Below, piece by piece: positions 3,700 through 59,800 of a DNA stretch of 64,000 bases. The position numbers and the translations under genes were made by a program. Source of the DNA: Raillietiella orientalis. Taxonomy: Eukaryota. The notes below the pieces were generated by a model. The model had not been told where the DNA came from, made no database searches, and saw nothing but the letters and a program-made list of their open reading frames with translations. Every line of letters begins with the position of its first letter. Position 1 is the stretch's first letter. The stretch lies in assembly GCA_036172245.1 (NCBI GenBank), contig JAYWIR010000022.1, forward strand, positions 2,108,001-2,172,000. The letters are read 5' to 3'.

Positions 3700-4550
3700 G
3701 AGATGAGAACAGTTCCGCGAAGATGAACGTCTGGCTTCCGGAACTGCCAGCCGGACTGGGGAGGAACGCACGCACATGCATCTGGCGCGTTGACCTTATT
3801 GATCCTGGAGACCCCTATGTGACCTCGCGTGGCAGAGTACACGAGAAGTTGAAGATCTGGGTTCAGTGCACGTGACCCAGTTAACTTTCTCTTCGAGCCA
3901 GTGCCACCTAAAGCGGAATGAACGCAGGATAATAATCGGGCGAGGAGTGACACGTGACTGTGTCCATTCCTCCCCCCTTTCTCTCTCTCTCCCAACCTTC
4001 AACTCCTTCTCTACCCCACTCCTACTATTCCTCATACTACTAAGCCTCTCTCTCTAAAACTAAAACTCATACTAAAGCTTCTCTCTCTCTCTTCTAGAGT
4101 TTCTGGGCGCAAGCTGACACTACAGAGACGTCCCATCGGCTCTCTTTCCCAAGGAAACGGATGTGCTTGCGAGGGCCTTCGATTTCGCGCTGAACACGTC
4201 GGCGAGCTCGAGAAAGAGGTATCCATAGGAACCATGCAGACGCAGTACACAAAGGCAGCACCTCCACGAGGGAAGGCGTCTCTTTCCTCCTCTCCTTCCT
4301 TTCAAGCAGCAGCGCCCGAACAGCTCGACAGATGTTCCTCTTTGGCTCCCACCCTCTGGCTGCCCTTTGTGGAAAATTGCCACCGGTGTGCTCCGGCGCG
4401 CCACATTCTCCGGAGATGCACTGGAAGCGCAGGACTTCTTTCGCTGCTGCCGCGCAATCCACGTAGAGTAGATTTGACTACCCCCTGAGGCATCTGTGCT
4501 CACTTCTGGTGGCTCACCTCTTAATCCCCTGCCCCCACCCCCCCAAAAAA
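3700..4550 (+). mobile_element. Degraded gag-like/ORF1 relic with CCHC zinc knuckle(s)
   Basis: CHRCAPARHILRRC at about 4378-4419 fits Cx2Cx4Hx4C exactly, followed by a decayed knuckle-like remnant (FRCCRAIH). A similar remnant (CLRLCGQGG) lies near 1540-1570. Confidence 0.5.
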
Positions 4551-16630: not shown

Positions 16631-17173
16631 GAACTATGTTGCCCTCCGGCCCCTGTGGCTGCTCTACGCAACAGCTCTTGGTGCACCGACGGAAAATTCC
16701 AAGGGCATTATAGAGCGCCTCTTCGTGCGCGGCACCCTTTCGCCTGCTGCATCCCCAGTAGCTCTTTGCTGCTGCCTACGCGGGATTGCCGCGGCCCGGA
16801 GCTACGCGAGAGGAGGACGGCGCGATCGGAACGCCATCTGCCCTTCGCCCTGCGCTTCATGAGGACGACAGCAAGATGGCCCCAGCTGGGGTATACTCGG
16901 ATGGAAGTTGCCGGCATCCTGGAAAGGATGCAGAGGACGTCCTCCAGCTCCCGCTGACCCCTTCCCTAACCCTCCCAAATTTATATATATATATATATTT
17001 GTTTTGTTTTTATTTTCGTTTGTCCCCTCCCCTTTCGCTGCCGAGGAGAACCTCTCTGGCCTGCGTGCCGGTCACTCGGCAGTTTCCGAGCATTTTCGGA
17101 CAATGTCGGGCACGATGGCCCTACACCTATGAGTCTGTTATTTTTTATAATAACTCCCCGGCACACCCGGGTG
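16630..17173 (+). mobile_element. 3' fragment (copy D) of the LINE family; left arm of an inverted repeat
   Basis: ALRPLW...RLFVRGTLSPAASPVALCCCLRGIAAA and RWPQLG..MEVAGILERM match the ORF2 C-terminus. The UTR and hairpin (17158-17173) are present. Confidence 0.82.
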
Positions 17174-28267: not shown

Positions 28268-30081
28268 AAGGCGTATGCTGACGATCTTTTGCTCCTGCTG
28301 CCCATGTCCGCTCCGGCTTCGGCAGTCGAGGATTTCTTCGACTTGCTGAGCCACGGGACAGGACTACGGGTGAACAGGACGAAGTCGTCGCTGGTTGCGG
28401 TTGGTGCAACGTGGGCAGGACGACCTGATTGGATCCGCCTGGGGATCCCCACGGAGAGGTACCTGAAGTGCCTCGGCGTTCCGTTGGGGGACTTCTGCCA
28501 GTCAGAAGCCTGGTCAGGTCGTCTCCAAAAAGTGGAGTCAGCGATCGGCCCGTTCCTGGAAGGCAAGCTTCACTTGCCGGAACGGGCCGCGGTGTGGAAC
28601 GCGTTCGCGGCCCTTCTCCTTCGCTCCCTGCTTTTTGTTTGCCCCGTACCCCGTGAACTGAAAAAAAGAACAAAGGACCTCCTACGCATCGCCCTGTGGG
28701 GCGGCGGGAGCCCTTGTGTGCCTTTGAAGGATTTGTGCGCTCCACGTCGGGACGGAGGTCTTAGCGTCCTGACGATGGAGCGAATATAAACACAGCTGCG
28801 GTGGCGTACTGTAGCCATCGCAACGAAAATGTGGAACACCCCTTGGGGCGTTCCAGCCCGCCTTCTCGCCAGACGTGTGTCCGGGACTGAAGGACTCGCG
28901 TCTTTTCTTCTGTGCCTCGGCCGGAAAATAAGAAGATGCGGACTTCTCCTAGGACGCATGGCCACCCTGGCAAAGGAGAACGGGTGGATGGCCTGCAGCC
29001 CCGCCAACTCCAGCGCATGGCTAAAAGAAACAGTTAAAACGTGGGCAAAGTTGAAAGACATCAGTGGAGAATCCTGCAACCGCCTGCGCACCGGCATCTA
29101 CACCCGCTGCACGCTGCGGAACATGATCGTGTGTCCCGCCAGAGGCACTTGGGCGGAGACGAACCCACTGGCCACGGCGCTGCCCTTCCTACGAAGGGCG
29201 CTTCAAAACAGCCGGAAGCCGAGATGGCAAGTCTCCTGCAGGATAGCGGGCAAGGAGAAGGATCTAAGCGGGTGGACCATGAGGGAACTGGCAGACGCCG
29301 CAACCCCAAGCGTTCACCCGCATGGAATACGGAGATGGGGCGAGCTGCTTGGCATCCCGGCGGATGACCTAGAGTGGCCCCCGTTGTTCATAGACTCATC
29401 CACCCTCCCCCTCAAGTGGCAGGAAACGGCGCTGCTGCTGCTGCACTGGGGTCTTCCCTGCAACGCGCGCCGCCACCACTGGACGTTGGGGAACGTGGGA
29501 CAGAACTGTGCAGTGTGCGGGGAGAAGGAATCCCTCCCCCACCTGTTAGTGGACTGCGCTGCCCTCCGGCTCTTGTGGGAACGTTTTGCTACGACCCTCC
29601 CTATGCGGGTCGGCAGTACCCCCAGAGACGTTGTGAGACTCCTCTTCGTGCGAGACGCCCTGCCACCAGCCTCAACCCTGGCAGCGCTCTGCTGCCCCAA
29701 AGGGATTGTGGCTGCATGGAGCGCAGCCAACAGAGGAAGCAGCGATCGGGACCCCATCGTACACGCGGGTCGCCACCTGCGAATCGCGATCGGCTGCTTC
29801 CATCTGGGAGCTAGTACGAGGGACCTCGAAGGCATCCTGGAAAGGATGGTCTCTTCCTCCAGCGGGCTGTGATCCCTTCCCGGCCCTCCAAATAGTTTCT
29901 TTTTGTTTGTTTCATTTATTTTTCTTCTTGTTTTATCCTCTATCCCCTTCCTTCCGAGAGTCAAGCCGGCCTGTGAACCGGCTTCCTGGCAGGTCCTATG
30001 AACTATTGGCCGTAGCGGGGCCTAGTACCGCAGATGTACTGTTTTTTTTTTTTTTAATAAACGCCCCGGCGTGACCGGGTG
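28268..30081 (+). mobile_element. 5'-truncated L1/Tx1-like non-LTR retrotransposon (copy A): RT C-terminal half, zf-RVT-type zinc finger and 3' UTR
   Basis: AYADDLLLL (YADD at 28274-28285), GLRVNRTKS, YLKCLGVPL, LCAPRRDGGLSV and CAVCGEKESLPHLLVDC are all in one frame, interrupted by a single TAA at 28787-28789. The ORF ends at 29872, followed by a T-rich UTR, AATAAA and a terminal hairpin. Confidence 0.88.
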
Positions 30082-30089
30082 AAAACTTC

Positions 30090-30760
30090 CCCGCGTCCAG
30101 TGGAAGCGGCGGGCGTTGCAGGGTAGGCCCCAATGCAACAACAGAAGCGCCGAATCCTGCCACGGACATTGGGGATCCTCTCGTAACGGCGGGAGTGTAA
30201 ATACGCCCTCTCGTTGCGAGTCCCCTCGCCAAATCCCCGGGTCAGGCGGTCCATAGGGAACTGCTCACAGAACTCGCGGACCGAGTCCTTAAATAGGTCC
30301 CAGTCGGCAAGACTCTGGAGCGTGACGCCTCTCAGGAATTCGCGAAGATGGTCTTTCGCACTTGAAAGTCGCGTCCAGTCTCCTAGCAAAGCCACGCCCT
30401 GGATGGCGGTCCCTTGTCGCGCGGGCGCATCTCCGCTGCCGGGCGAAGGAGCTCTTGCGCGTGCCCCCCGAAGAACGAGCGGTCCCTTCCTTGCGCTCGG
30501 ACACCTCGGCAGTCCCCTTGAACCGCGAGGACAAGGCGGTGCGCTGAAGTTCCTAGCGCAATTCGCGCCTGCTCCATGTTTTCCAGAGGAACCACATCCC
30601 CGAGCTGTTCCGGCCTGCGGGACGATTGGATCGATCTCGCTCCTGCTGCCGGATTCTTCGCGAACGGCGGAAAAGTAGTCTGCATCTTCAGCGCATATCG
30701 AAGACGCCGCCGAGGACTTGCTACAGGGATTCTTCGCGCGCGGCAAACTCACGGTGGGCG
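30090..30760 (-). mobile_element. Degraded LINE ORF2 fragment from the end of the endonuclease to the linker region
   Basis: LQSLADWDLFKDSVREFC resembles the W(E/D)xxKxxxRxF motif that follows the APE domain in L1/Tx1 ORF2. The rest is degraded. Confidence 0.5.
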
Positions 30761-32949
30761 CCGTGGGCGCAGCCGATCACGTGCTGGAGTCCCGGGTGCT
30801 TAGATACGAAAGACCGCCCTCGTGGAGGCAGCCGCTTTGCCGAGGACTACAGCGAGGCAGTGATCCCACTTTAGCGAGGAAGTTTTCCAGAAGGAAGAGA
30901 CGGCCACAACCAAACTCACCCTTCCCCTGCCCTCCCTTCTCTTCCTGTTTATCTGTTCTGCCCCCTCCGGACGTCTTCTCCAGAAAACCAGCCTGTGCAT
31001 CGGAAAATCCTCCCGACGGACTTCCCTCTGTTCCCTCTCTAGGAGTCTGGCATGTCCCTAAGGACTCTGACTGCTCGTCTTTTCCAGAGGCTCTCCGGAG
31101 TGACCGGGCGGAGACGAAGGAGCGCTTTGGTGGCCGAAGAGGAGGCGACACGGAGGACTGCCGACGCGCTTGTCTCCGGTGAAGATGGGCAGAAACCGGT
31201 AAGGGACTTCCGTTCCACGCAAGGTGGGGACGCCCTCCTCTTCAGAGTGGGGAAGGATCAATCATCGCGTGCGCGGAGAGGGAGCCAAGGGACGTTTGGC
31301 CATCGCGAAGCCGGACCGCGGACAGCGACTTTGGTCTGCTCACCCTCCTTCCCTCGCCCACATAAAATGAAATCTATTAATAGTTTCATAATCAAATCCC
31401 AATAAACTCCAAATAAACATCAACCTAAACTTCCAAACTAATAAACCATCCCTTACCCAATTACATCCTCCAACACACATTAAAGTAAAATATATAACTA
31501 TCAAACTTACTCTCCAAATAAATCCATAACTGAATACTACTATAGCATAAAATTTTTCTAATCCATTAACATTCCCTTTACACTATACTTTATTCACATC
31601 CAATTACTCATAGAGACGGGTCAGTCTTGGACCGGACCCGCCGCCTCGGGCAGCGACGTGGGGAGCCGCGTTTTCAGGGGGAACGTGTCTGCTAGAGATC
31701 CCCGCGGAGAGGGGAGGAGGGACCTCCCGGACTCATGGGCTCGGGAGGCACTCGTTCACGAGCGGGCCCCGGTTCCAGCGGTGGCGTCCCGAGAAGCGAG
31801 CGACCCTCGGCGGGAGTCACGCAGAAGCAGAAAATGGCTCGCACACGGTCCGTCGCGGCGGCGGCACGGTGCGCTTTCCCTGGGGAAATCCCCGTCGGGC
31901 AAGGCCACGTCCCGCGTAGGCGGTCGTACGGCACGTGCCGAGATGCCCGCGTCGTTCGCCGGGACAAGTCGAGGGAGGGGGGAGGGAGTCACTAGCGCCT
32001 CCTACGAAAACCACCATCGAAATGACCGTTAAAATAGTAACAAACAAACAAACAGACAAACAAAGACGAAAGCGCGCGCAGCGAAAAGAAACGAAGGCGT
32101 GGAGGCTGCTTAGAGGTGGGTACTGGAGAAAAGGTCGAATTCGCGAGCAACGCTGCCTCGGGGGACGGCAGTGGGAGTCCTCTCCCCCCTTCCACCCCAG
32201 TGGAGTATCCCCAGCAGCCAGCATGCAGAAACCCCCTACAAAAGTCCCTGCACCCCCCCACCTCTGCTGCGCTGCGAGCGAGAGCCCTCGCCACGGACGC
32301 GTTCACAGCAGCAGAAAGCAGGGCACCTGCCCTTCCAACCCCTACTCAGAAGGGGAGCCTCGCTCTAACAGGACGGATCGGGCGCCTCCTCCGTCGCCAG
32401 TGCCCCAGCAACTGAGATGGCGTCAGCGCGTTCGAAAGATCGATGACCAAGGGACACCGAAGGCGACCGAGGTCGCCTTTTTGACAAGGAAATGCCCGGG
32501 GCTCTAGAACCTGCTGAACATCCGGCATCTTCTCCGTCCGAGGGGAGATGCCTGACGCTACCTAGGAGACGGGAACCCCTCCGGTTCCCTGGCCGCGTCC
32601 CTCTAGCTCCTTGCTCACTAGACCACACCGTCGCGAGGTCACGCTCGGAACATCCGAAGGAAATCCACGCGCATGACGGAAGCGCGAGGACCCATCCCCG
32701 CTTCCTCCTCTCCCGAATGGAGAGGCAGGGAAAGGGCAGCGGGTTGCGGCACCCCGGAAGGCTTTTGAAAGATGAACAGAAGCCATCGGAGGTTTTGTGG
32801 TTAAGGCTTCCGCGCGTGGCACCATGCGTCGCGGAATCAAATACTCAGGCAGAAACTCTGACGCCACTGCGTCGTTTGGGTTCCGAGTTTCTCCTGCAAG
32901 ATGGCGCTGGTTGGCCGAGACATTCGGGCGTGGCACCGGCGGTGGATTA

Positions 32950-33680
32950 ATCCGAAAGGTCCCCGATGAAGGCCGGAACAATGGGAGTCGACCTTCGGGT
33001 CCTCCCAGGAATCAAGGAGTGAGGAGTGTCCCCTCCGGTCGTACAACGGAGAGCGAACCCCCCTCACTGGGGGGACCCTTCCGGTTTCAACATGGAGCAG
33101 GAGCCCTCACGGGCACCTCTCCAGTTGTTCAAAGGAGCGAACCCTCCCCGTTGTGCGGGGGTCCCTCCAAGTCGTCGCCTCTTCAGAGAGTGCAAGGAAG
33201 CAAGCGAGAGCGATCCCCCTGCGGGAAGCTGCAGCGCCCCTTCTGAATTTCGGAAGCGCCCCTTCGGGGTTCTCTTCAGAGGAGTGAACAGGAGCGGTTC
33301 CCTTGCGGGTTCCCTCCGGAGAAGAAATTCCTACAAGCGGATCCTTTCCGGGTTCCCTTCGGAGAAGTTGAAATGGAGAGGACCACCCTCCCTATTAGGT
33401 GGGTGTCCCTCCGGAGAGAATGAGGAAAGAGATTCCCTTCGGAGTTCCTCTTCGGAGACAACCAGGGTGGGAGGAACGGACTCCGAGTCCTTCCTGGATT
33501 CATAGGGCGGACCTCCCTCCCAGGGTGCCCCCTATACTGAAGAATTACACTGAACAATTTACACGCCCCCCTGCGGGCTGCCACAGGTGGAGTAGCGTGG
33601 AAACTAAACAGTGTTGTTTAAAGAGCCACGTGCGCCGCGAGGCACGCGACCGGCTCTTGAGGTACTTAGCGAACCAAAAA
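32950..33680 (-). repeat. Repeat family X, longest second copy
   Basis: The reverse complement carries CCCTATGAATCCAGGAAG and CTCCTCTGAAGAGAACCCCGAAGGGGCGCTTCC in the same order as 8660-9255. Confidence 0.78.
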
Positions 33681-36570
33681 AAAGAAAACCCGAAAAAAAA
33701 AAAAAAAACTGGAAGGAAAAAACAGCGAAGGTAGAAGGAAAAGAAGAACCCAAGGATTTCCAGCATGCAGAGGTCAATACTGCTCGAGGCGGGGACGTGG
33801 CCAAGGTAATCGGCACGCAGCCAGTCCTGTAGCGTGGGGCCAGGAAGGGCAGGGGCCGCTGTCCGTCGAGGTCTGCGCGCATGGCGGAAAAGCAAAGGTT
33901 CTCCCCGCCGCGCCGGACTTCCGGGAGATGCAGGGAGGAAGGGCCTGATCCTGCGGGCGAGCGTCTCACGAGGAGTCGGAGAGGAGGTGAAGCAAATGAA
34001 TAGAGGAAGGGCAGAGTGCGGGGCGGTCGCCCGGCCTCATCCATTGTGGCTCCCAGGTCCCTCATGAACGGGAGAGGCGTCCTCCCTTTTCGTTAGGGTT
34101 ATAGAGTCCACCTCATCCCCGGCCACTGCCGACACGTCTCAACCGGGCAAGCTGCCTGCATAGCGACAACCGCCGCGGCCGTCTCAAAGGGCTAAAGGCA
34201 GCGCCCTCCGGCCATCCCGCCTCCTTGTGAGGCTTCCTCTCAGCGCAGGGTCACCATCCCACCGAGTGGGCCCACCCTCTCTGAGACGAGGTCTTTTCCT
34301 GCCAGGTGGCCACATCATCCCCAAAAAGGGTGCGAAGCTCTGGAAGGACTGACCTCCAGAGGTAGGCTAGTCCCGCGCGGACTGATTGGAAGATGCACGC
34401 CGAACCCGCCAAGGAGCTCCGTGCTGACGCCTGGCATCAGAACCTTGCAACGCGCGCACCTTCCCAGCGACCTTGCGAAAGGGTGTCGGAGAAAGGGCTA
34501 GCTGTGCGACGGCTGCTCTTGCCCTCCAGGGATTCCGGAAGGAAAATTTCAAGCAGTGATCGGAACAGATCGGAAACAACCGAAACGGCCCCCCTCCACG
34601 CCCCCCTTCCTTGGAAAAATTGACGGGATCAGCCAGGACGGCGTGTGAACGAGGGAACGTCCGAGATGCGCCATCCGAGGCAGTCGAGGAGCCGTCCACA
34701 GGATCATGCTTCGTGGCCGCTTGCCCTTCCCGAGCCCCCGACCCGCGGTGGTCTCCTCTGCCCCTGTAGCCGGTCTTCCCCGACATTTTTTTTTCCCCCG
34801 CACCGCTTTTCAGTTTCCCGCCTCGACGGCAGATGGCAGCTCTGCGGGCTGGACGGCCACGGCGGCGCGAAAGAAGAAAAAAGAAAACGAAGAGGTCGCC
34901 ACCTTTTTCGGCTAGGTGGGTCGCCCTGCCCCCCCCTCGCCAAATGGTGACAGAAGGGGAACGCGTCTATCGTTCCTGGTTTTCAGGAATGCGACTTGTC
35001 CTCCCGGGAGATCCAGAGGGAAGGAGCGATTAAGTCCGGACTGGTTGAGGAAGCGGGGAGAGGGGCAGACCCTAAGGAGGACCCCCTATTGCGCGAGATC
35101 AAGCTGCAGAAGCAGCAGCAACTCCTTACCAACCTCCGTGCGGCCGCTCCTTCCCGGCGAAGAGAAAGAGCCTGGAAGCTCACGGCTTCCTGGAAACCAC
35201 CCAGCAGCCGATCGCGGGAGAGCCCCTTCCAGAGGCACGGACGCGACCCTCCCCTAGCACGGGATGGGTGTGATGCCCGGCGACGGCTAAGGTGGCCCGC
35301 ACGCCAGCGAGACACGCCAGCCCTCTCTCTCTCGGAGGTGATAGCCACTGGCAACCGAGGACCCTCCTTCCATCCTTTCTCCACGAGCCAGTGAGGCGCT
35401 CCGTGAGGCCGTTTTGTAGCCGTGGGGGGCGCCGACGACTCCCTCTGCACTCACCACCCCTTGGACCCATGCCTGGCCCGTAGATCGGTGGTGGTGTTGG
35501 CTCGGGCACAGCCTCCGTCCATGAATCGATTCGCCCCCCTACCCCTCCTACGCCTACCAGCATCTTCCGGGCGGCACATCGTCTTCCGCGTTACGCCCCT
35601 CCGGACGAGGATATTACCCATCGCTGTACCTTTTCGCGAGGAAGATGCTGTAGGCAGGTAACACCGACGGAGACGAGGGGGCGTCTTTGATAGCCAGCTG
35701 GCCGCCAGAGCACACGTCTTCGTGTCGCCACCGCCCTCTTCCCCCCCTCGCCGTCGTCCGGAAGGGTGGATGGCCCCGTGGCAGTGAAAGGAGCAGGAGG
35801 CGCATGTGGGGGAGCCGCGTGGCGCGCGTAGAGGGGGAGCGGGAGGGCCGCCATTTCGTTCGTCCTTGCGCGCGCGACTCGCGGGATGCGGTGCCAGCAG
35901 CTCCGCTCCGGCCCTTGCGGGAGGGTGAGCTGACCTCGGAAGGTGCCCGCCCGCAGACGGAACGGCGGTGGCAACCAGACCGTCCAGGGGCACAAACCCC
36001 GGATGGCACCCTGCGCCCTCCAGCCATCTCCAGCGGTCGCTGGCGAGGTCCGCGCCGAGATCCAACAGCACTCCATGAAGGGCGTTGCGACGGAGATGCC
36101 CCTTCGGAACGCCTGTCAAGGGCACGCGCTGCCGCCCTTGGAAACCGATCGTGGGGTGTGGTGTGGGAATATGGATGAGGATCCTCCCTGGAATCCGTAC
36201 TCCAAAAGCTCGAGGGCAAAATGAGCGCTGCTCCGGCTTCTACGGGGGAGGAGGAGGAGGATGGCGTGGCACCCTATGGCAGCCGTGAACGTAGCTGGGA
36301 TGGGGTTAGGCAGGCTCCAGCGCCCGAGGCGCTCCGCTCCATCAGGCCTTACTTCCCAGCGCTGGGGAGGAACGTGCTTAGACCACTCGACCTCAGGAAA
36401 GAGCAGGGACGTTGTCCGGCCCGGGGCTCGCTCCCCAGGGTCAAGACTCGGGCGAAGCGCCATATTGGACTTTTGCCTGGTCGGAGATGCGGGTCGCTTG
36501 GCAGCCCTCCCGCTTGGCGGAGACACACGACAGCGCGCGCGCGGAGAGGGGCAGAATGAGGCACAGCAAC

Positions 36571-36744
36571 CTCCCCTTCTTCCTCCTCCCCTTCTTCCTC
36601 CTCCCCTTCTTCCTCCTCCCCTTCTTCCTCCTCCCCTTCTTCCTCCTCCCCTTCTTCCTCCTCCCCTTCTTCCTCCTCCCCTTCTTCCTCCTCCCCTTCT
36701 TCCTCCTCCCCTTCTTCCTCCTCCCCTTCTTCCTCCTCCCCTTC
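36571..36744. repeat. Perfect 15-bp tandem repeat (CTCCCCTTCTTCCTC), about 11.6 copies
   Basis: Directly visible; a pure polypyrimidine/polypurine tract. Confidence 0.97.
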
Positions 36745-37159
36745 CCCGGCTGGGGAGACGCGGCTATTCATCCTGAGCGCCAGCGCGCTGGGAGACGGCA
36801 GCTGCCTGGGCTGCTGGAGATCGCTGGGGATCGATCCCTGGGAAGGAGCTACGGGATCCATTTCGTTTGGTCCAGGTCAGCCCACCTCGATGAGGAGGAA
36901 GAGTCTCTCCCGTTACATATCTTCCCCGCCCTCCTCCCTCTGTCTCTCTCTACCTCCCTCTCTCCTCGGCAGACAGAACTCGCGCGAGTTTATGCAAGCC
37001 CTCATAGATGTCGCAGCTGGGCGGCCGAGCCACTGACTTTCGACGGGAGAGGTCCCGTCGAAAGTCAGGGACCTCTCCCATGAGCGAGAGGGAGAAAGAA
37101 ACCCCATCTTTCAGAAAGAAAGACCCTCATGCCTCTCGCTGGAAGGGGATGGATCTCGG

Positions 37160-38427
37160 CCCCTCCTCGCGAGGCCCCTGCGTTTCCCTCTCGCCTCGCC
37201 GTCGCGGCGAGAGGGAAACTGCTTCTGTGCTCCGGCCGGAAGATCCGAAGATGCGGCCTACTTCTGGGGCGCATGGCAACCCTGGCGAAGGAGAACAGCT
37301 GGATGGTTTGTAGCCCCGCCAACTCCTCCGCCTGGCTGAAGGAGACTGCTGGCACCTGGGCTAAGCTAAACCAGAGGAGTGAAGACCCCATGAATTGCCT
37401 GCGTGTCGGCCCATACGCCCGCCGCACCCTGTGGGAAATACTTGAATTTCCCGCGGGTTGCACGTGGGCAGAGACGACCCCCCTTGCTACGGAGATGCCC
37501 TTCCTCCGGAGGACGCTTAGCGGCAGCCAGAAGCCGAGGTGGCAAGTCTCCTGCCGAATCGCAGGCAGGGAGATGTTAAGCGGCTGGACCACAGGAGAAC
37601 TGGCGGACGCCACGACACCGAGCATCCAGCCGAGAGGACTTTTGCGATGGGGAGAGCTGCTCGCCATCCCTACGGATGTGCTGAAGTGGCCCTCGGTACT
37701 AAAGGAATCCAGGATCCTGCCCCTTAAGTGGCAAGAGTCGGCGTTGCTACTGCTGCACTGGGGTTTACCCTGCAACGCACGCCGCTTCCACTGGACAAGG
37801 GGAGCGGTGAATCCTTAGTGTGCCAAGTGCGGAGAGCGGGAATCGCTCTCCCACCTACTTTTGACTGTGCTGCCCTCCGTCCCCTCTGGGAACGGTTCGG
37901 GACGACCCTCGGTCTCCCTGTGGGCAGCCAACCCAGCGACGTTCTCCGTCTTCTCTTCGTGCGGGACGCCCTTCAGCCAGCTGCAGCCGTGGCAGCACTC
38001 TGCTGTATCCGAGGCATCGTGGCGGCCTGGAGCGATACCAGCGAGGAGGGAGTGGATTCAAACGCGATGGCTGTCATCCCATATGCTGTTCGCTTCCTGC
38101 GGAGAGCTATTGGATGGCCCCAGCTGGGAAGATTGAAGATGGACCTCGAGGGTATCCTGATGAGGATGGAACCTCCTCAAAGTGGACCGTGATCCCTTCC
38201 CTTCCCTCCAAAAACTCTTTTTTTTTTCTTTGTTTTCTGGTTTATTTTTCTTTTTGTTTTTCCCCCCATTCCCTTCCACTGCCGAGGAGAGTCACACCGG
38301 GCTGCGTCCCGGTGTGTCGGCAGGTCCGGCATTACGTGGCCGTTAGTGGGGCCTTGTACCACATACTGTAATGACGAGTGAAACCTTTTTTTTAATAAAC
38401 GTCCCGGAGTACCCGGGTGGCATCGCC
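37160..38427 (+). mobile_element. Second 5'-truncated, disrupted copy (B) of the same LINE family
   Basis: GRKIRRCGLLLGRMATLAKEN...LPLKWQESALLLLHWGLPCNARR aligns with copy A. There is a stop at 37816-37818 and a frameshift in the zinc finger. It has the same UTR and hairpin organisation. Confidence 0.88.
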
Positions 38428-40255: not shown

Positions 40256-43200
40256 TCAGCGGTATCCGGGGTAGCCTGGGTATTCGGGGTAGCCTTCGTA
40301 GCCTCCTCCATAAGTGGGGGGGGCAGGTCCGTCCGGGCCCTCGGTCGTGGTTTCGCCAGGGCTCGGTCTGGGAGCGGTTGTGTCCCACGCGGAGAAGTCC
40401 ATCTCGGGGATGTCGTCGGAGTCGCAGGGGATCACCGGGTTCCTAGAAAGAGGGAGGAGAGGCGCGGGAAGGACGGGAGGAAGGAGGACGGCGCAGTCCC
40501 CGCGCTGCCCTCGACGTCCCGAAGGAGGAGTCGGCGAGGGGGAGCCTCAAGGCAGCCACCGTCCCGCGATGTCTCCTCCTTGGCCCGCTGCGAACCTCAC
40601 CGCGTCTGCGAGCCTCCCGGCGAGAGGGAGCGCTCCCTTCTCCGGGAGGAAGGGCGGAGGCCCTCGCCCCTCACCTTTCCTGGTCGGACAGATACATGGG
40701 CCACGTGTAGACCTCGGCTTCCAGTTCGGAGTTGTCACACAGCAAGCGCGCCATCCTGGCCTTATTGAGCTCCTGGATCTGCTCTGAGGGAGAGGTGCGG
40801 GCGTGGAGCCGCCAGACTTCCCCCACCTCCCACTCCACCCCCATCCCCTGCCCCCGGAACACACTTACGGGGCGTGAAGGCGCTCTGATGCTGCGTGTTC
40901 TGGTACCAGAAGCGGTCTCCCGCCTTGAGGCTGCTGAACTGCTCGGCCACGATGTGCCCGAAGGTGGGGCCCAGCACCGCGCTGGGCACCTTGATCTCCG
41001 CCAGGCCCCCCGTGTACAGGTCGATATCGTCCGGCTGCCTGCGAGAGGAACGCGCGAGAGTGTGGAATGTGTGGGGGAGGGAGCCTCCGCCACTCCCGCC
41101 CCGTCCCCAGGGGTACTCACGAGTACAGCAAACGCAGGATCTTCAGGGTTGCGTTGGTGAAGACGGCCATCTTGGAGAGCTCCTTCCAGTCGTTAGAGTG
41201 GGCCAGGCGGAAGAGCCTTCTGGATGGGCAGGGAGGCGTGGGAAGGCGAGAAGGGTCCCAGAGAAGTGGGGAGGAGGGGGAAGGGGGGAATGATAGAGAG
41301 GTCGCAGGCACGCGCCAGGGACGGCAACAAGCGCCCCGTCATGTCATCCCTCGAATCCGCCTGGGATTGGAGACGGAAGGGTGGGCCTGGAGGGAGTGCA
41401 AGGACTCCTTGGTGTGCCATCCGGGCCGTCGGCTCACTGAGCGCTTGGCAGCGGGGCCTCCCTAACCGCCCAGCCCATCCCGGGAACCGCGGGGGGGCAG
41501 GAAGAGGAGGTGGATCGGCCGGATGGGACGACCCGCTCACTTCACGAGAGGTCTCCCAACTGCCGCAGCCGCCAGAGCTGGGTGCGGCACTCCCACTCCC
41601 TACCTGCCTGAAGGACGTTCCCTCTCACCCTTCCCCCTCCCTCAGGAAGGCTGCGATGTCCGTTCAGCATCCCTGAAGGACTGAGATCTTCCTGACTTCC
41701 CGGGAGGGGAGGAATTTCTTCCCCACCCCACTTGCCACGGTTCCCGGAGCGCCCCTCTCCGCCTCCCCTCCCTCCTCCAGCTGAGAAACGGTGCAGCGCC
41801 GCTTCCTGCTGATGCTGGGACCACCCATGGGAGGGGGGAACGCAGCCCTTCGGTCTGCCTGTGCCCAGACGAAGCGGGGATGGGGCCGCCGAAAGGAGGG
41901 GCCAGGAGGACAGCGCCATGAGCATTCAGCAGGCAACCAGAGCACCGATCTTGGGAGGGTCACTGCACTTCACGATGCGCTTCCTTTTTCTTCTCTACTC
42001 TCGTTCCCTGGGATGGTTCTTCCGTCCCTTCCGTCGCAGTGCCACGGGATGGAGCAGAACCACTGGGACAGTAGAGGGAGAGTGCAGGAGCTCTCCCTCC
42101 CCTTCCCTCCTCCCCGCAACAATAGAACCCGGTGCTACTGGCGGGAGTGCACATCCGCCTCTCGGAGGGATGAGGCTTCCCGAGGGACAGCCCGCAGCAG
42201 GCGGGCAGGCGGACGGGGGCTCTCCGCCGCGTCCCTGCGACGCGCGGTCGGCCGTTGCCAGCGGCTTCCCAGCCGCCACGGGGAGAAGCGGGGGATGCCT
42301 CGAAAGACCCCAGTGGGAAGGGCTGGAGGTAATGGGGGGTGCGATAGGTCACCTGTAATGCATGTATCCCGGGAGGCCCACGTCCCTCCCCCTCTGTATG
42401 TCGATGGACACGAGGTCAAGGCCAAACTCCTGCTTGGGGTTCTCGAAGAGGTGGTTCCTCAGCTGGAAAGCAGAGAGCGGCTCCTGGGACGCAAAGGAGG
42501 GAGGCACCTGACCTCCAGTGTGACCAATTCGTCGAACTCCGAGGAGGCAGTCGTGTAGAGCCCCCTGAGGAACTCTTCGAAGGCCTCCGGGGATTGTAGG
42601 AAGAAGGGCATCAGGAAGGTAGAGCCCAGGCGGTGGGCGGCTGCAACGAAGTGCCCCCCGTTAGGAGAGAGCAGCCCTTCCTCCCCCCCCCTCGCACACT
42701 CTAGGTCCCCGTCCCCGCACCCAGGCACGCCAGCCGCCGGGGTCAACGCGCCCGAGAGGGAGCATCATGCCAGCCGGTCGAGCGGCAGGAGGAAGGGGTA
42801 CGCACGGCGTGACCTCTCTAGCCAGCGGGCCCCACCCTTCGCCCCCTCGGCCGAGGCCGGTGGTGTGATCTCTCGGAAGCGGACCGAGGGACCCATCCTG
42901 GAGACCCTCCTTCCCTGCGGAGGGAGCCGAGAGGGTCCGGCCCTCCCGTTCCCTGGACGCTGAGAGGAACGCGGCGTCCCGAGCGTCTGTGCGTGTGAAG
43001 ACGCACCCGGCCACCGACCCGAGAGGGGCTCCGGACCTCGGCGGGCCACGACCTCGCACTCCACCCCCTCCTCCCTCCTCCAGATGGCCGACCCCTTCCC
43101 TCGAGCACGTTCGCTGGTCTCCCTCGGTAGCTTCCACGGCTCGTTCTGCATCCCGCGCGGCGAGCGTCCTGGGATCGAGCTGCCGGAGCGGCTCGGGTCC

Positions 43201-46200
43201 ACCCCTGACCCGGAAGAGGGCTTCCTTTCCCTCACCCGGAGGATGGGCCGGACTAGGTGTCCTGTGGAGGGTCGGACCGCGGGCCGCCCTTGCCTCCCCG
43301 GGCAGTTGCCTCCCCCGCCTCGCGTAGCGCATCTACACGGCTGCTCTCTGCCAGCGCGTCCTCGAAGCTCTGTCGATGGGCGCCGAGACCCCGGAAGGAC
43401 CAGGAGCGCGGGGGGATAGAGGAGGGGTGAACCCACGAGACCAGCATCTTGAGACCTGAGCCCGCTCAGGGGTTCCCCCGAAAATTTTCGTTTTCCCTCG
43501 ACCGAAAAGTGGAGCGACTCGGGGAGAAGGACGACGGGATGAGGCAGGGCAGTCGGGGAAGAGTGGTTGTCGCCCCGGACGAGGTGTGCGCCTGCGCCTT
43601 CGAGGTCCCGAGAAGCGGGAGAGGGCGCCTCCGAGCTCTCTCGAGGGGAGCATCGCGGGGGGAGGTGGAAAGGGCCGGTGCCGGAGAGCGCCAGTAGACA
43701 GTCGGGGGAGGGGAATCCGCCCAAGGAGGTGACCTCGGGGGGCGCCTCCGACCCTCAGGATCTGGTCTCCTTTCCCCCTACCAGGATCGAGACGGGAATC
43801 CGGGAGAAGAAAGGAAAATCAGCCTCTACTTCGGGAAGGGGTCGCAGCCTCTGCAGCCGCCCGCTGCTGAGCCTCCGCCCCTGCGGTCTCTCCAGCCGGT
43901 CGAGCAAGGAGGAAGGGCGAGGTTCTCCGCGCGCCCCATTTCGCCTCCGATCGACGGCTCTGCTGGCACTGCCCGGTCAGCCTCATCGCTCGCGTTCCCA
44001 AGTGCCGCCCGGAGAGACCCTTGGATCCTGGTCAGCATGCTTGGATCGAAGGGTCGAGCCCTCTGGCAGGTTCAGGGGTCAAGTCCAGAGCCGCCGCCGG
44101 TGGCATCAGCAGCGGCAGTCCCCGGCGTGCTGCGGAGCGGAACCGCCAAGAAGACCACGAGAAGGTCATCGCCATCCTCACCAGACGGCGCTTTCTCGCG
44201 GCTACCGGGAAAACAAGCCTCCCTTGTTTCCGCTGGAAACAAGGGGGGCTGGCGAGCTCGCTTCGCTTCCTCCGCCTTTCCTCCGCCGACAGCGGCGGAG
44301 CGGCGTCACGCAGCCAGACCGCGGGAATTTGCCGCCCCCCTCATCCAGCATCTTCCCTTTTGCTTTCCTAACCTGCGTATGGGCGCCCCCTCTCGCCAGA
44401 GGGGAAAGGAGGGTCTCCTGCTGTGTAGGATGGAGAAAGATCGCGCACGTCACCTAAGCGCAGGAGGGAAGAAATTTTTTTTTCGAGGAGCGATTGCACG
44501 AAGAGAAGGAAGGGAGAGGGGGAAGCGGCGCCTCTCTGAATCGGATGCGGGGGGCAGGGGGAAACAGAGCGCTCGAGGGAGAAGGTTCGTGTCCGGAGTG
44601 CGCGCGCTCAGCGCCGGCTAGCGGCCAAAGAGTTTCGCCCGAGCGCTTCGCCGCCAGACGGCAGCGCGCCGACGCATCCCCCCTTACCTATGGGTATGCG
44701 CTCCTTGTCCACCCTGTCCAGCATGGGTGGCACGACAGAGTGGCCAAACCTGAAGGCCGCGGCGGCGAACTCGATCGAGCTCGTTGGGTCGACTTTGAAG
44801 TCGTACTTGTAGTTCTAAACGCCCCCCCGCCCGCGAGATGCTCCAGGCGCACCCCCGACCCTCTTACCTTGTCCAAGACCAGGTTGTAGAAATCCATAAA
44901 GTCCACCCCCAGCAGCGCCGGCAGGAACTCGTTGTAGGTGACCACTTGCATCTCGGCGGCCACGATCCTGCGGGCCGTCTGCACCGGGAGCCCCGAAGGG
45001 AGAGAGATGAGTCAGCAGCAGACCACGGAGACCCCACCGCCGCCCCCATCACCCCTCTCCTGTGGGTGCGCGACAAACCTGGAACAGAGTCTCGTCGTCC
45101 CACTCTGGGTTCACCCTCTCCAGCTCCTCGGCGACCCGGTTGTGCTCGCTGAGCATCAGGATGACCATCTGCGCTATGCCGATGTTCATGTTGGCCCGGA
45201 CGTCCCCTGAGGTGGCAGACTCGGCACTGCCGCACCCCACGACCGCGATGCCCCCTTCCTCACCTGTCTGGAAGCAGAAGACCTCCTTCTTCATCCTCAG
45301 GCAGAAGGAGTCGGGACCGTCCTTCTTGAGAGGCGGAAGCGACTCCGTGTCCAGCAGCATGCGGCCTCCCTGGTTCTCCCTCAGGGTCCTAAGGCAGCGA
45401 ACAGAACGCGGGTACGCCCTCCGTGAGTTCTCCTCCCGGCCGCGGGAGGTGCGCCGCCACACATGCGCGAGAAGCGCGTGCAGGTGGGAGGGTTGGAACA
45501 GGGGAGTGCCGAGGCGGGGAGGGCAACCCCCGACATCCCGGGGAAGCCGCGGGCGGAGCTGGACCGTGGTGGTGATGGTGAGGTGGAGGAAGGAGTGCGC
45601 ACACTCCCGGGGTCCGACGGGCACGGTACGCAGATCCTTCGGTGCCTGCGGTGCACGCCAAGGCGGCGGCGAACAGGCCGCGACCCTCCCAGAGGGCCGG
45701 TCGCCCCATCCCGCTTAAACCCGACCACCCCCTTTGCTCATGTGGAGGGGACGCAGCCCCCCTCTTTCCCTTGCCTCGCCTTGGGTCGGCGCCACCCGGC
45801 CGGCGTTTCCGTCCCACTTCCCTCAAGGGCGTCTGAGACCCTTTACGACCCCGGGATTTATCAGATGGAGAGAGCGGAGGCTGCCGCCCCTTCCCGCCTA
45901 GCGCAGCCACTTCCCGGAGGGGCCCGTCAAGGCCCAAACATCCGGGGCAGGCCGCCTCGCCCCTCTTCCCCTCGGGGGCTGGCAACTCACCTCAATAAAT
46001 CCGGATCGACCCCGTAAATGGAGCTGCCGTCGATGGTGGAGGTCACCAGGTTGAACCCATTCCTTTGCCCTGGGGCGACGGGAACCCTTTTACGACCCGA
46101 CCAGCCGCGACCTCGCGTACCCAGCCTGCAGGACTCCCTCAGCCCGGGGTTTATCCTGAAGTTGTCGAAGCAGGTGACCCCGTAGGGGGAGTAGAAAGAG

Positions 46201-49200
46201 TCGTTGAAGAGCACCTGCACCCTCATACAGTGCTGAGGTGGGCGCTCGCCCGCTGCGTGGTCGCCGCAGCACTTACCGACGCCCCATCTGGCGTAGTCTG
46301 TTGCGGAAGTGTGAAGAGGGATCCGAGCGCCCACCGCTCCCGCCTTACCCAGGTCGATGGCCGCGAAGGTGGTCTCCAAGTAAAGCAGGTGGCCCCAGTA
46401 GGCAAACACCTTGCTGAGCGCCGCCGCCGCGTAGTCGGCGGTGCTTCCGTGCACGCGGTTGGACACCACGCGCTCCATCGGCAGCCCCCGCTGCCGGGGG
46501 GACTGTAGATCGTCGTCGTAGGCGGCCGGCAGCAGCCTGATGAGCAGACGCGCGCGCGCGCGTGGGAGGAGGGGGAAGTAGGACCGTTTCTGCCGGACGG
46601 CCCGGCGGACTGCGGGTCGCACCACGGGACGCCAGGGGACGCGCCCTGGAGTTTCCGCAAGCACCGGAAACCCTGCCCGAACGCACGCTCTCCACCACTT
46701 CGCGTGAACCCCAGGCAGCCCTGACGCTCGCCTTCCCTCCCACGTCTCCTCCGCCCGGAAACAGCCCGCGCGTGGCCGTGCCGGTGGTATTCGGGGAGGA
46801 AGGACACATGATCGGCCATCACTAGTGCAAGAGCCCCTCCTTTCCCTGCCCCCCTTGCCGCTGTCAGGAAGCGGAGCCATGCGACGGAAACGGAAAGACG
46901 GTGGCGCCGTCGAACGCAGTTGGCGGAGAGTACAGCAGCTGCCGTCAGGGAGAGGGACGGGGCACACGGCAACAAGGGGAGCGTGCGCCCACGTCATCCC
47001 TTCAGAAGTCGCCTGCGGACGGGTGGCAAGCAGCGGGTTCGCGCATTTTCCGCGAGCGTTTCCTCAGGGGGCAATGGGCGGGCGCCAAGCTCCGGGCTGG
47101 AGCCACAAAAACCGAAGCACCGGCAGGCCGGTCGCTCTCCCCGGTGGCGTGTCTCCTAAGGCGCCACAGGTGTCCGCTCGGAGGTGCCGCGCTCGAGGCC
47201 CTCCGTTCGCACGCAGCCCCGCTCTTCCCGGGGACTCAAGTAGCCTTCGGGGATCGTCGCAGAAGACCCCAGCGACCTCCCCTGACCAGCACCCGGAGTC
47301 TGGGCTGGTCAGGCATCCCTCTTTCCGAAAGACTCCCGGCGTCGGGCGGGGGGTTAGGGGGCGAGCTCACCAGAAGCTTGTCGCGCTCGCCTTGCCGCGA
47401 CCCCCCCAGAGTCGCACGGCCTTAAGACTACAAAAAGGGGTGAGGGGGACAGGGTGACTGCGCCTCATCAGACCTCGTTCACGTGGCCTTGAACCGCTGA
47501 ACTCCTGTGGCTTCCGCCGTACGAGGATCCCTCTCAGAGCGCGCCGCCCCTCCCCTCTCCTTCTGCACGACGGGAACCCCAGGAGCGAGGGAGGATTCAG
47601 AACCACCACCTCGGGCGGCGGCAGAGGAGGCTCTCAGGGGGCGCGGACAAACGGAGAGGCCTCTGGAGGGTGCTTGGTCTCGCTGCCCGGACTCTTCGGC
47701 TCCTGAACAAAGGACGTGCTGCCTCTCCCCTTCCTCCTGCCCACCGGGCCACGCCGGTGCACGGAGCGGGAGGAGGCTCTCGAAGGGAATGGAAGTACGG
47801 TGCCCCGCGCGGAGTCTGGGTCAGAAATGGGGGGCTCCTGAAAGACGCGGGAGGGGGTCCTCTCGGAAAAGGGAGCCTTGGCTTCATAGCGCCCCAAGGG
47901 GTGGTCCCTCAACACGAAGAAAGGAGAGCCCCGGGAGACTCAAGGGGCGTGTCGTGGCAGGGGCGAAGCCCCCGACTTCCCCCATGTTCTCCCTCCGGAG
48001 CCCTGGGATCTGATCGAACTTTCAGGTTCGTGGAGCCGCACGCTACCTACCCCACGAAAGCGCATGCTTCTTCCTTGTGCTCGACGGATGCAGCAGGGAA
48101 TCTGATATTTGCGGAGGGGGCGCGTCGAGGGACTTCTCGTTCCGCAGTTGTGGGTCCGCTATTCCGCAACCCTCCTCCCGAGACCCTCTCTTCCTCGCTT
48201 CCCACGCGAGAGCCCCCAGCAAATCAACGGGCCGAGCTCTGCGAGAACCAAGCGGGGAGGGGGGTTGGAGCTTCTGCCGCCGGCCGCGAGATGTCTCTGC
48301 TTTCCATCTCTGTCTTTCCCGTCTGGCGGCGGCGTCCGAGAGCACGACTCCGCGAACACCGAAAAGAGAGACCGCGTTCGAGACAGGAGACCGAGGAAAA
48401 GGTGGAAGCTCTGAGGCGTGCGGGAGACGCACGCATCCCGTGGTGTGGACAAAGTCCGGCGGCGTGGAGTCTTCGCGATCCCTCAGGAGAGCGGAGGAGT
48501 AGGAAAGGCGCCACGACGCCGAGAGAGGGAAGGCAAGGAAGGCCCGTGACCCTCGGGGCCCCGGGAAAGCGACGTCACCGGACCCCATGGGGCCTCGGGC
48601 ACCTGAGCTTCCCTTTCCTCACTCCCGTAAGCCTCTGACCCCGTGCTCCGAGCCGAAATGCCAGAAAACGCAGCACGCGAAGACCTTCGCAAGGGCCATC
48701 GCCTCCCTCAAAGCCGGGATGTCCGGCCATGCAGAGTCTCAGCGGCTGGAAGACACTCTGTCGGGCTGCTTCGTTCCAGATGGAGAAGCAATTGGTCTCT
48801 GAGCTGAGCGGGAGCACTCCCTCAGGTAGGGGCCGACAGCTCTCCCCCTCACGAAGCTCACGACGGCGAGGTCCACAGGCTAGCAGGACCGGAGCGGCCC
48901 CATGCCTGCGCGCTGCCCCAAACTCCGTCCCGATCGAGCTGTTTCCTTCTCTCCTCCCGCTCCTCCCGAGCGGAGGGGACGTGTCCCTTCCCTTCCTTCG
49001 GGAAGGACGGGTGGATACTGTCCCCGGGCTCACCCTCCACCGCCGCCGGGCGACGCGGCGCGGGCCGGAACGCACCTCCTGTACTGGGCCATGGCCGCTC
49101 CGAAGATCAGGTGCTCGACATTGTTGCAGATGCCGTCAATGTCCTGGGGTGCGTCCTCGTTGCAGGTCAACTTCCAGAAGATAGAAGGGCAGAGCTTCTG

Positions 49201-56842: not shown

Positions 56843-59800
56843 TCACGCAGTCTGTTTCATGATTTCGGCGATGCAGAACTTGGACAGGCTGTCAGTGTCC
56901 GGGGGGCGTTCGGAGCTCTCCTCGCACTTTCCGCCGCCGCCACCTCCTTCCTTCGCAGCTTCCGCCACCGGCGGACTGTCTCCCGGCTGGGGATCGCGCG
57001 CCGACGACGACGACGCGCAGTCCGCCTCGCCCTGGAATGTCGAATCGCTTGATGTGGGGGACGCGGGGAAGGGCCGGAATAATGCTGAGCGCTGCTGAGG
57101 AGCTGTTGTCGGAACCGATGAAAGAGAAGACAGGCGCTTTTCGCCTTTCTCCCTCGCGGCCGCTGGTCCCTGATCTTCGTGCTGCCCGAAAGGTGCAGCG
57201 GAGGATTTCTTGAAGTCTTCTTGAAACGCGAGCGATTCGCTGTCGCTGCAGAACATCTCCTCCTCGGTGAGGTCCTCGACGTTTATTTCGTTGATCTCCG
57301 CCTCGCACAGGTCCTCCTCGTACTCTTTGGAACAGTCTTCTTCGGCCCCCTCGCATTTACTAGAGGATCCTCCATTGTGGGTGAGGCTATGACGTCGTAG
57401 ATCACAGTTTCTCCGAAAGACCTTTTTACAAGCATGGCACGAATAGGGTTTAATGTTGGTATGCGTAAGGAGGTGGGTCTTTAAATTAGATCTTTGGTTG
57501 AAAGAACGACCACATGTAGGGCACTTGTGAGGCGATTCTTCCATGTGTAGTATTTTATGCACCGCCAGAGTTCGCGACTGGCAAAATCCTTTTCCACATT
57601 CTGTGCACTTGAATGGCTTCTCCTTCGAGTGGATGAATCTGAAAGCAGAATCCTCGTGAAAAAAAAAAAAAACCATCAATTCGGCTGCAAAAACGGAATT
57701 TTCGAAATGTCATTCGAGAGAGGAGGAGAAAAGGAAGAAAAACAAAAAAAAAAAAAAAAAAAAGATCAGCAGAAGCGGCCGTTCATCACGGGAACTAAAA
57801 GCCGGTGGATGGTAGGAGTTTGCGCAACTCGAAAAGCGATCCTTTGATCAAGGGGAGGAATTTTACAATCAACAAGAAGAATTTTAATTTGAAGTTTTTC
57901 GGAAAGGCAGTTCGGACCTTTGGGAGGAGTCAGCGTTTCTTCTCTTTTTGTGCTGCGTGTGTCACTCTGGAAGTCTATGGAATTATGGGACCTGGGGCAG
58001 AGATCCGGACGGAAGACAAAAACGAAAACGGAGCACTATCGGCTGATGGTCTCCGGCGGTGACGCGGTGGCTTCGGCCTCAGCCGGGGCGAAGCAATCGC
58101 GTCAAAAACGGAGGAGAAGAAAAAATGGAAGATTCGCGCGCTCGTGTGCTTCGCTCGTGGTGGTGGGCACGAAACGCACCACCCCGTGCCCGAACACCGG
58201 GGTCGGCTTGGCCGGTAACCCCCGCAGGCCAGGAGACCGCGGGTGGAACGCGAATGTCCTGGGCGGGCGCCGTAGACGGGCACGGAAGCTGCCTGGGCCT
58301 CCTGGTACGTCCCACACGGATTCCACACCTCGGAAGAGAATGGGGCGAACCTCCCCCCCTTTTCCTCCCCCCCTCCCCACTCGCATTTGTTTCAATTTGT
58401 TTTTGCTGGGGATTGAGGCGGTTTCGATTTGGTAATAAACAAATTAAAATTCAATCCGAGGTTTCGAACGCGCTCAATTTTAGTTAATGAATGCAGCGTC
58501 TTCCGCCCTTCCTTTTTTCTTCCCCCTTCTCCTTTCTTCTGTTGGTGATTCGAAAAGACTGTCGGAAACGAAAGCGTTATTTGCTTTGATGCTAAGCAGG
58601 TATCCGTTCGAAAAAATTGATCTCTCGATTTCGAGACCAATTAGCCGGCCATCAAACCGACTGACCAGTGACTAATTCTTCTGACACGAATCCAAACGCT
58701 CACAGCAGTCGCGGAGACTTCTGAAGGATCCGACCGCGCCGCTAAATCTCCCTCGGTCCTGTGGCTTTCGGACGCTGTGGCCCCGCCGAGAAAGACGGAA
58801 GAACGGAAGACTCCCGGTTAATCCGAAGCAGCAGGATGGGAGGAGGGAAACCGTCGCTCGGAGCTCGGTGGAGTCTCCTTGGCAGCAGCGTCCGGGATCC
58901 GACGGAACGGAACCGCCGCCGCACCGGCCCGTGGCTACCGTTGCTTTCAGGAGCGCACAAAACTTGGCGGCGCTGAAAGATGGCGGCGATATTTCATGAC
59001 CGATCCTCGCCCTACATGCTTCTTACACGCTTTGGACCCTGGCGGAAAGCACTGGCAGAAGACACCTCGCTCGAGACCTTCCACACCCATGGCTTTTCAT
59101 CAAAATGCATCGGGAAAAAACTGATGCACCGCAAAAAAAAAAAAAAAAAAAAAACTTTCCGACCGGCGGAAAAATCACGAGCGCTTAGAACTTGAGAATC
59201 GCTGTTCGAGAGCGTCTCCGCATCCATGGAAACCGAAAAATGACTCAATTAAGCGCTGGGTTTTTGCTAAGGACAAAAAAAAAAAAAAAAAAAAAGGAAA
59301 ATTCCGAAGGAGATCATTCCTAGTGTTGCAAGCTGCACCTTTGCAAAAAAAAAAAAAAAAAATTCCTCTTCCAAGAACGCTCTTTCGTTATTTGTTGGTC
59401 TCATTTCGCGTTCATTTCCAGCGCTTTGGGCATGTTTAGAAATCTGGACTTTGGCACGCTCCTCTGCCTCTGCCCGCGATTAAGAGAGGCTGGACCATGC
59501 TGTCGGTTTGCATGTAAGCTGGCGGCAAAGGACTGGACTACCGTACGAGACTTCGCGTTACGTGGGCCGAGAGCGGTCGCGCGCCCGACCCCGGTGCGAC
59601 CCCGCCGCAAAGCGCCCGTTTCCGCCGGAACGCGCGCGTGTTCTCCCGGCTCGCACGCTGCAGCCATCACGGGAGCCGGACGGGCTACGCGACGCGTCTC
59701 CTGCCCAAGGAAAACACCAGCGCGAAACACAGGCACACTCGCCCAGCCGGTGACGTCGAGAGAAGAGGAAGACGCGCGCGTGCGCGCGAAGAAGGCGGAC

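Follow-up and report, generated by a model that had tools for sequence, protein, structure and literature searches.

How a sequence of about 250 nucleotides can be almost free of G on one strand while lying in GC-rich DNA is the question raised by a locus in the genome of Raillietiella orientalis. A sequence-only reading of this locus had interpreted the sequence as a footprint of strand-specific hypermutation, in which deamination of cytosines on the opposite strand of retroelement-like DNA would have converted most G to A. The locus was analyzed here within the 64-kb stretch of DNA that contains it (hereafter the window).

Composition and borders of the tract

Base counts on the plus strand of positions 31361-31612 (252 nt, hereafter the tract) were 108 A, 63 C, 5 G and 76 T. 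This recount was identical to the 5 G against 63 C given in the sequence-only reading, and the elevated A (108/252) and the absence of CpG that it had noted were also found (CpG 0, GpC 1). In the 1-kb flanks, G amounts to 29.6 and 31.9%, C to 32.2 and 31.9%, and T to 19.7 and 14.2%. Across the 64 kb, the number of G per 250-nt window averages 74.8 (s.d. 13.0), and the tract is the sole place where such a window contains 20 G or fewer. Given the G frequency of the whole stretch (29.9%), the probability of observing at most 5 G in 252 nt is 1.7e-31, and that of observing at most 5 G among the 68 G+C, which are actually split 5:63, is 3.8e-14. Near-total depletion of G on one strand is therefore confirmed. 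The remaining G-depleted segments of the 64-kb window are CT-rich low-complexity runs that lack A as well. The tract itself is complex in sequence: analysis with TRF and a repeat finder detected one 11-mer present twice and nothing else, in agreement with its earlier description as non-repetitive.

The sharp borders described previously were also recovered. On the right, G resumes at once after the last base of the tract (at 31613, 31615 and 31618-20). On the left, the AT-rich core starts at 31360 and runs to 31612, and the G-free zone opens 21 nt before it, at 31339, so that the maximal G-depleted segment covers 31339-31612 (274 nt, 6 G). The bases that come after the five residual G of the core, namely A, T, T, A and C, show no pattern, and none of these G is in a CpG context. 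The features of the locus are collected in Table 1.

Table 1. Features of the G-poor tract and its immediate surroundings (positions in the 64-kb window)
Feature	Position	Strand	Remarks
Left flank, GC-rich non-coding	31043-31338		No family match; no paralogue within the 64-kb window
Polypyrimidine lead-in, 21 nt	31339-31359		Single G, at 31356, within a CpG; could belong to the flank or to the insert
AT-rich, G-poor core, 253 nt	31360-31612		Plus strand A 43%, T 30%, C 25%, G 2%; GC skew -0.85; non-repetitive
Open frame P0001, 74 codons	31361-31582	-	T/G-rich strand; hydrophobic; no relatives; may be chance
Minus-strand start of the tract, 30 nt	31583-31612	-	Two in-frame stops ahead of the open frame; no tRNA
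Right flank, non-coding	31613-32000		62-74% GC per 100-nt window; abrupt start; no family match

Genomic surroundings

The tract is located in non-coding DNA. Its surroundings had been described as GC-rich and retroelement-like; the first term applies, whereas the second finds little to rest on, the only such element being a zf-RVT match in a plus-strand ORF (28790-29869), with flanks that match no family. This ORF ends 1.5 kb upstream of the tract and is followed by a T-rich stretch. No Pfam family was found in the flank ORFs from 30054 to 34036, and no homology to reverse transcriptase, gag or LTR sequences was detected in the tract or in the ORFs of its 1.4-kb flanks. On the other side, an animal haem peroxidase gene extends on the minus strand from ~47063 down to 40765, which places the tract ~9 kb past its 3' end; a search with the haem peroxidase ORF as query returned no match. 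A C2H2 zinc-finger ORF is found at 56846-57709. Neither a tRNA nor an Rfam family at gathering score was detected anywhere in the 64-kb window. No deaminase family was present among the Pfam hits obtained with 207 of the 211 window ORFs of at least 140 aa and with 91 shorter minus-strand ORFs in 24-45.1 kb, and we know of no deaminase in R. orientalis.

Coding and RNA content of the tract

The 74-codon minus-strand frame (31582 to 31361) has no stop in either the standard or the invertebrate mitochondrial code, and the remaining two minus-strand frames contain 7 and 8 stops. Among 2000 dinucleotide shuffles, at least 74 open codons in some frame were observed in 59 under the standard code and in 110 under the mitochondrial code. 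Base usage in the frame showed no clear difference between codon positions. Pyrimidines occupy the second position in 37 of the 74 codons, a value that is higher in mitochondrial membrane proteins. The frame is thus a weak hint of a coding past.

Searches with the 74-aa translation gave no match at E<=10 in Pfam or the PDB, no match at E<=1e-3 among 1.84 billion representative proteins, and nothing in two word-index protein searches ('longer' and 'near' modes). Protein-pattern scans of metagenome and viral contigs produced 124 and 4 pattern matches, respectively, none of which was confirmed. In a protein atlas, the table-11 reading showed low recognition (892), and its top matches, all of them unnamed clusters, scored 0.77 at most. 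The table-4 reading gave a Pfam match to DUF4400 (E 0.0097; 15.9 bits for a cut-off of 27) that was not reproduced and was attributed to chance. Frame pieces of the plus strand had only chance matches (PDB E 1.9, Pfam E 0.13).

Scans of the tract for tRNAs, including the mitochondrial mode, detected none, and Rfam gave no family on the tract at E<=10 and none on the surrounding 2 kb. RNA folding compared with shuffles yielded z values of -0.01 for the minus strand and -1.9 for the plus strand. When four rRNA primer sites were matched with G read as A, the best match was 19/25, reached by 4 of 300 shuffles and, being one of eight tests, regarded as chance. A 7-base motif of the nad4L/nad4 overlap was found a single time on the minus strand, out of the required frames, and was rejected; by our estimate, such a motif would appear by chance in about one of eight such tracts.

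Comparison of the tract with local DNA when G is read as A

Conversion of G to A on the plus strand leaves C and T unchanged, and therefore the levels of these two bases provide a test of editing in place. T amounts to 30.2% in the tract, versus 19.7 and 14.2% in the flanks, and C to 25% versus 32%; the earlier statement that C stays near the flank level was therefore not quite accurate, and it had left the rise of T aside. With G converted to A, the T level of the tract was reached by 4.4% of the 252-nt windows in the 64 kb. A change-point scan of T alone over 30600-32400 placed the top segment at 31330-31628 (LLR 14.8), with 31330-31611 nearly equal (LLR 14.7), and these segments are co-extensive with the G-free zone. 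When the change-point analysis was carried out in three-letter space, the strongest nearby segment was not the tract but a pyrimidine-rich one (30915-31085, LLR 18.4), indicating that the region is heterogeneous.

Markov models (orders 1 to 4) fitted to the remainder of the 64-kb window with G merged into A placed the likelihood of the tract at the 1.3, 0.6, 0.24 and 0.16 percentile, respectively, of 2532 background windows. The arrangement of purines was also unusual. The longest purine run in the tract is 4, for a mean maximum of 12 in the background, and a maximum of 4 or less was found in 0.28% of 6324 background windows, all of them poorer in purines than the tract, and in none of 431 composition-matched windows. 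In random sequence with the purine content of the tract, a maximum of 4 or less occurs in 6.6% of cases. These results show that the tract is unlike the nuclear DNA of the window even with G read as A, where nuclear background means one 64-kb window sampled with overlap, a standard that an atypical AT-rich resident element could fail too.

A relative of the tract that had kept its G was also searched for. When the tract and the two 1-kb flanks were each compared with the 64-kb window by plain blastn, only self-matches were returned. The best match of the tract in the window with G read as A scored 40.1 bits, and 20 shuffles gave 34.6-44.6 bits. A 33-mer of the tract, taken in the same reduced alphabet with A written as R, was absent from metagenome and prokaryote contigs. 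Matches by blastn to phage and plasmid records were at chance level only (E 0.3-0.9), which makes a spike-in or vector source less likely. From these data, deamination by a deaminase is neither shown nor refuted.

Proposed capture of a foreign fragment

Considered together, the observations point to a captured foreign fragment that was G-less on arrival, and not to resident sequence edited in place. We assign this reading a probability of roughly 0.55, because the borders of G loss and T gain coincide, because the tract is foreign in purine/pyrimidine space, and because it has no repeats, duplication or tail. The last point was assessed at the junctions. The best alignment between the flanks at the tract borders, as expected of a direct repeat, scored 20, a value reached by 6.6% of 286 control pairs, and no terminal inverted repeats, internal repeats or A-tail were found at the tract. 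Against capture stands the fact that no source was found in the protein, RNA, phage, plasmid, metagenome or viral searches.

In the proposed sequence of events, a foreign fragment already nearly G-less on the plus strand would have been joined into GC-rich non-coding DNA. Given that target-site duplication, poly(A) and terminal repeats are all missing, a chromosome break closed by end-joining would be the most likely site of entry. We infer that the tract is an insertion, for which extrachromosomal DNA, for instance mitochondrial DNA or a cDNA, would be the likeliest source.

Two routes, to which we give similar weight, may have led to the lack of G. The fragment may possibly have been G-less by native bias, for example as a mitochondrial stretch that is non-coding or little conserved, or as an AT-rich low-copy repeat. 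Such a strand bias would need an unusual source. Alternatively, and also no firmer than a possibility, a single-stranded fragment may have undergone near-complete deamination before synthesis of its second strand. Conversion of some kind is supported by the count of 5 G in 252 nt, which is too low for mitochondrial DNA with the usual strand bias (P 1.7e-6 to 4.9e-4 for GC skews of -0.3 to -0.5), and by the lack of any recognized mitochondrial gene. In its most explicit form, which we put forward only tentatively, the tract would be a fossil of single-stranded DNA, either leaked mitochondrial DNA or cDNA, in which nearly all C were deaminated and which was then made double-stranded and captured at a chromosome break in the germ line.

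The two routes differ in what they would mean. If the fragment was natively G-less, the tract would be one more captured fragment, but from a source with an unusually strong strand bias. If it was deaminated, the tract would represent the first trace in an invertebrate genome of near-saturating cytosine deamination on a single strand, would imply a potent cytidine-deaminase activity on single-stranded DNA in such an animal, and would connect the removal of stray DNA with the way in which nuclear inserts arise.

Alternative explanations

An artefact would have arisen if bisulfite- or EM-seq-type converted DNA, or some other systematic miscall, had been built into the contig. Laboratory conversion is the one well-known process that removes nearly all C of a strand regardless of context, as the tract would require. 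However, none of the residual G is in CpG, and five sites left unconverted would be many failures for a chemistry of this kind. The two junctions are seamless, the flanks being unconverted up to the last base, and a converted read of this locus should resemble the local genome once G is read as A, which the tract does not. The chance-level matches to phage and plasmid records also speak against it. A G-to-A artefact described for Sanger sequencing is, according to the available text of that report, tied to AGA/AGG and not saturating (Zaranek et al., PMC2873906). An artefact is thus unlikely. For annotators, nonetheless, such a block evades every homology search, and a check of the reads is advisable before it is interpreted.

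The tract could also be a copy of a naturally G-poor, AT-rich interspersed repeat of the SINE or MITE kind, an explanation that would fit a short insert with sharp borders in repeat-rich DNA. The window, however, contains no second copy, the tract lacks the terminal inverted repeats, target-site duplication and A-tail of such elements, and we know of no repeat family that combines complex sequence with 2% of one base. We therefore regard a repeat copy as having a small probability.

Editing of resident DNA in place would have required the locus to become single-stranded, through an R-loop, a resected break or melting of an AT-rich island, and nearly all C of its minus strand to be deaminated. 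This would account for a near-total depletion on one strand with sharp edges, and since an AT-rich island in GC-rich DNA would melt first, it could even explain why the borders of the two compositional changes coincide. Nevertheless, in-place conversion of ordinary local DNA is disfavored, because T and C shift at the tract borders and because the tract remains foreign in purine/pyrimidine space: the rise of T spans the same stretch as the loss of G, the likelihood of the tract stays at the 0.16-1.3 percentile with G read as A, and its short purine runs are unmatched in windows of like composition. Moreover, a C-poor partner tract is missing on the left, where 1 kb contains 32% C, and there is no flanking inverted repeat to keep a loop open (score 22, reached by 6.2% of 304 controls). 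DNA editing also went undetected in a published screen of 19 invertebrate genomes, as far as the available text of that study goes (PMC4866542). The probability left to editing in place is slight.

The least tenable explanation is an ordinary NUMT, that is, an unmodified mitochondrial piece with the usual strand bias. The A+T content of the tract (73%), an excess of A over T and of C over G as on the majority strand of arthropod mitochondrial DNA, a hydrophobic open frame on the T/G-rich strand, and the absence of target-site duplication and poly(A) would all suit such an origin, but no mitochondrial protein, tRNA or rRNA was recognized (non-coding or poorly conserved mitochondrial regions would escape these searches), rRNA primer sites matched at chance level over the eight tests, and second-position pyrimidines are below the level usual in mitochondrial membrane proteins. 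At 27% GC, the probability of at most 5 G is 1.7e-6, 3.1e-5, 4.9e-4 and 0.056 for GC skews of -0.3, -0.4, -0.5 and -0.7, respectively; the A+T content is in the mitochondrial range and the GC skew of -0.85 is not. A normal mitogenome is very unlikely to have supplied the tract as an unmodified piece, because this skew is far beyond the values quoted for crustacean mitogenomes, where the available text gives standard skews of -0.18 to -0.27 and a second highest positive one of 0.313 (bioRxiv 10.1101/2020.05.09.085712).

Comparison with known systems

Although an ordinary NUMT is an unlikely explanation of the tract, the preferred reading of a captured fragment shares several traits with NUMTs. 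These are also short AT-rich blocks with sharp borders in nuclear non-coding DNA, without target-site duplication or poly(A), and the strand bias of the tract has the same direction as that of the arthropod mitochondrial strand. By contrast, the protein and RNA searches recognized no mitochondrial gene or RNA in the tract, and its G content and skew lie far past those of the mitogenomes quoted above. Among the papers listed for NUMTs with APOBEC hypermutation, none dealt with deaminated or edited NUMTs by its title or abstract.

Bisulfite and EM-seq treatment resemble the tract in removing nearly all C of one strand independently of context, to leave a three-letter sequence. They differ from it in three respects, since the residual G of the tract is outside CpG, the flanks are unconverted, and the three-letter sequence is unlike its surroundings.

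Among natural systems, G-to-A hypermutation of retroelement cDNA by enzymes of the APOBEC3 type has been fixed in vertebrate genomes (Knisbacher and Levanon, PMC4866542). Retroelements edited in this manner share with the tract a clustered loss of G on one strand in repeat-rich DNA. According to the available text of the same study, what defines them is an unedited relative together with a dinucleotide motif, neither of which is available for the tract, and their depletion is partial, whereas that of the tract is near total. The tract differs further in lying outside any demonstrable retroelement.

A partial precedent for deamination before capture is the editing by human APOBEC3 of mitochondrial DNA that has leaked into the cytoplasm, for which about 12% C-to-T with a preference for TpC/CpC is given (PMC6395610). 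This system differs from the tract in being somatic and human and in an extent of editing that is far from saturation, and the available text of the report makes no mention of chromosomal capture of edited fragments. It nonetheless provides a route by which AT-rich organellar single-stranded DNA can be deaminated outside the chromosome and before any capture, and if the tract did arise in this way, it would parallel, in the germ line, what APOBEC3 does to leaked mitochondrial DNA in human cells.

Other G-poor stretches and pairing across the tract

When the segments of the window were ranked by their lack of G, the pyrimidine microsatellite, which contains no G and almost no A, came second in strength to the tract (the G-poor, AT-rich core at 31360-31612). 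A further G-poor stretch, at 3963-4096, is made up of CT dinucleotide repeats interspersed with more complex, A-containing sequence. This stretch is probably native low-complexity DNA, and it resembles the tract as a weaker look-alike.

The potential for pairing across the tract was also assessed. Within the lead-in, the polypyrimidine run at the left of the tract, positions 31343-31358 could pair at 14 of 16 positions with a polypurine run (31706-31721) located 95 nt past the right end of the tract. Since 6.2% of control pairs equalled or exceeded the score of this pairing, the complementarity is probably due to chance.

Surrounding features

On the 3' side of the end of the LINE-like ORF, an ORF with a zf-RVT match, a conserved motif, 'GATCCCTTCCC...CCCTCCAAA', is followed by a T-rich tail. 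Similar 3' ends were observed at two further sites of the window, 16914-17077 and 38148-38309. The arms of a 75-nt inverted repeat, separated by 598 nt, enclose the end of the ORF together with the T-rich tail.

The surroundings of the C2H2 ORF, with a GC content of ca. 40-45%, are AT-richer than the remaining window. In the haem peroxidase gene, pieces 22-165, 163-259, 255-295, 295-332, 374-413 and 444-502 of the An_peroxidase profile are collinear, running from 47063 to 40765.

Features of the window, with coordinates
Feature	Position	Strand	Details
End of LINE-like ORF, motif and T-rich tail	28790-30055	plus	zf-RVT match
Inverted repeat, 75 nt	29416-29490 and 30089-30163 (arms)		83% complementary
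Pyrimidine microsatellite, CCTCCCCTTCTT-type unit	36567-36755		ca. 185 nt, pure pyrimidine
G-poor stretch	3963-4096		134 nt; G 2, A 28, C 57, T 47
C2H2 zinc-finger ORF, fingers in tandem	56846-57709	minus	zf-H2C2_2, E 3e-18
Animal haem peroxidase gene	40765-47063	minus	at least 6 exon-like ORFs with Pfam An_peroxidase matches
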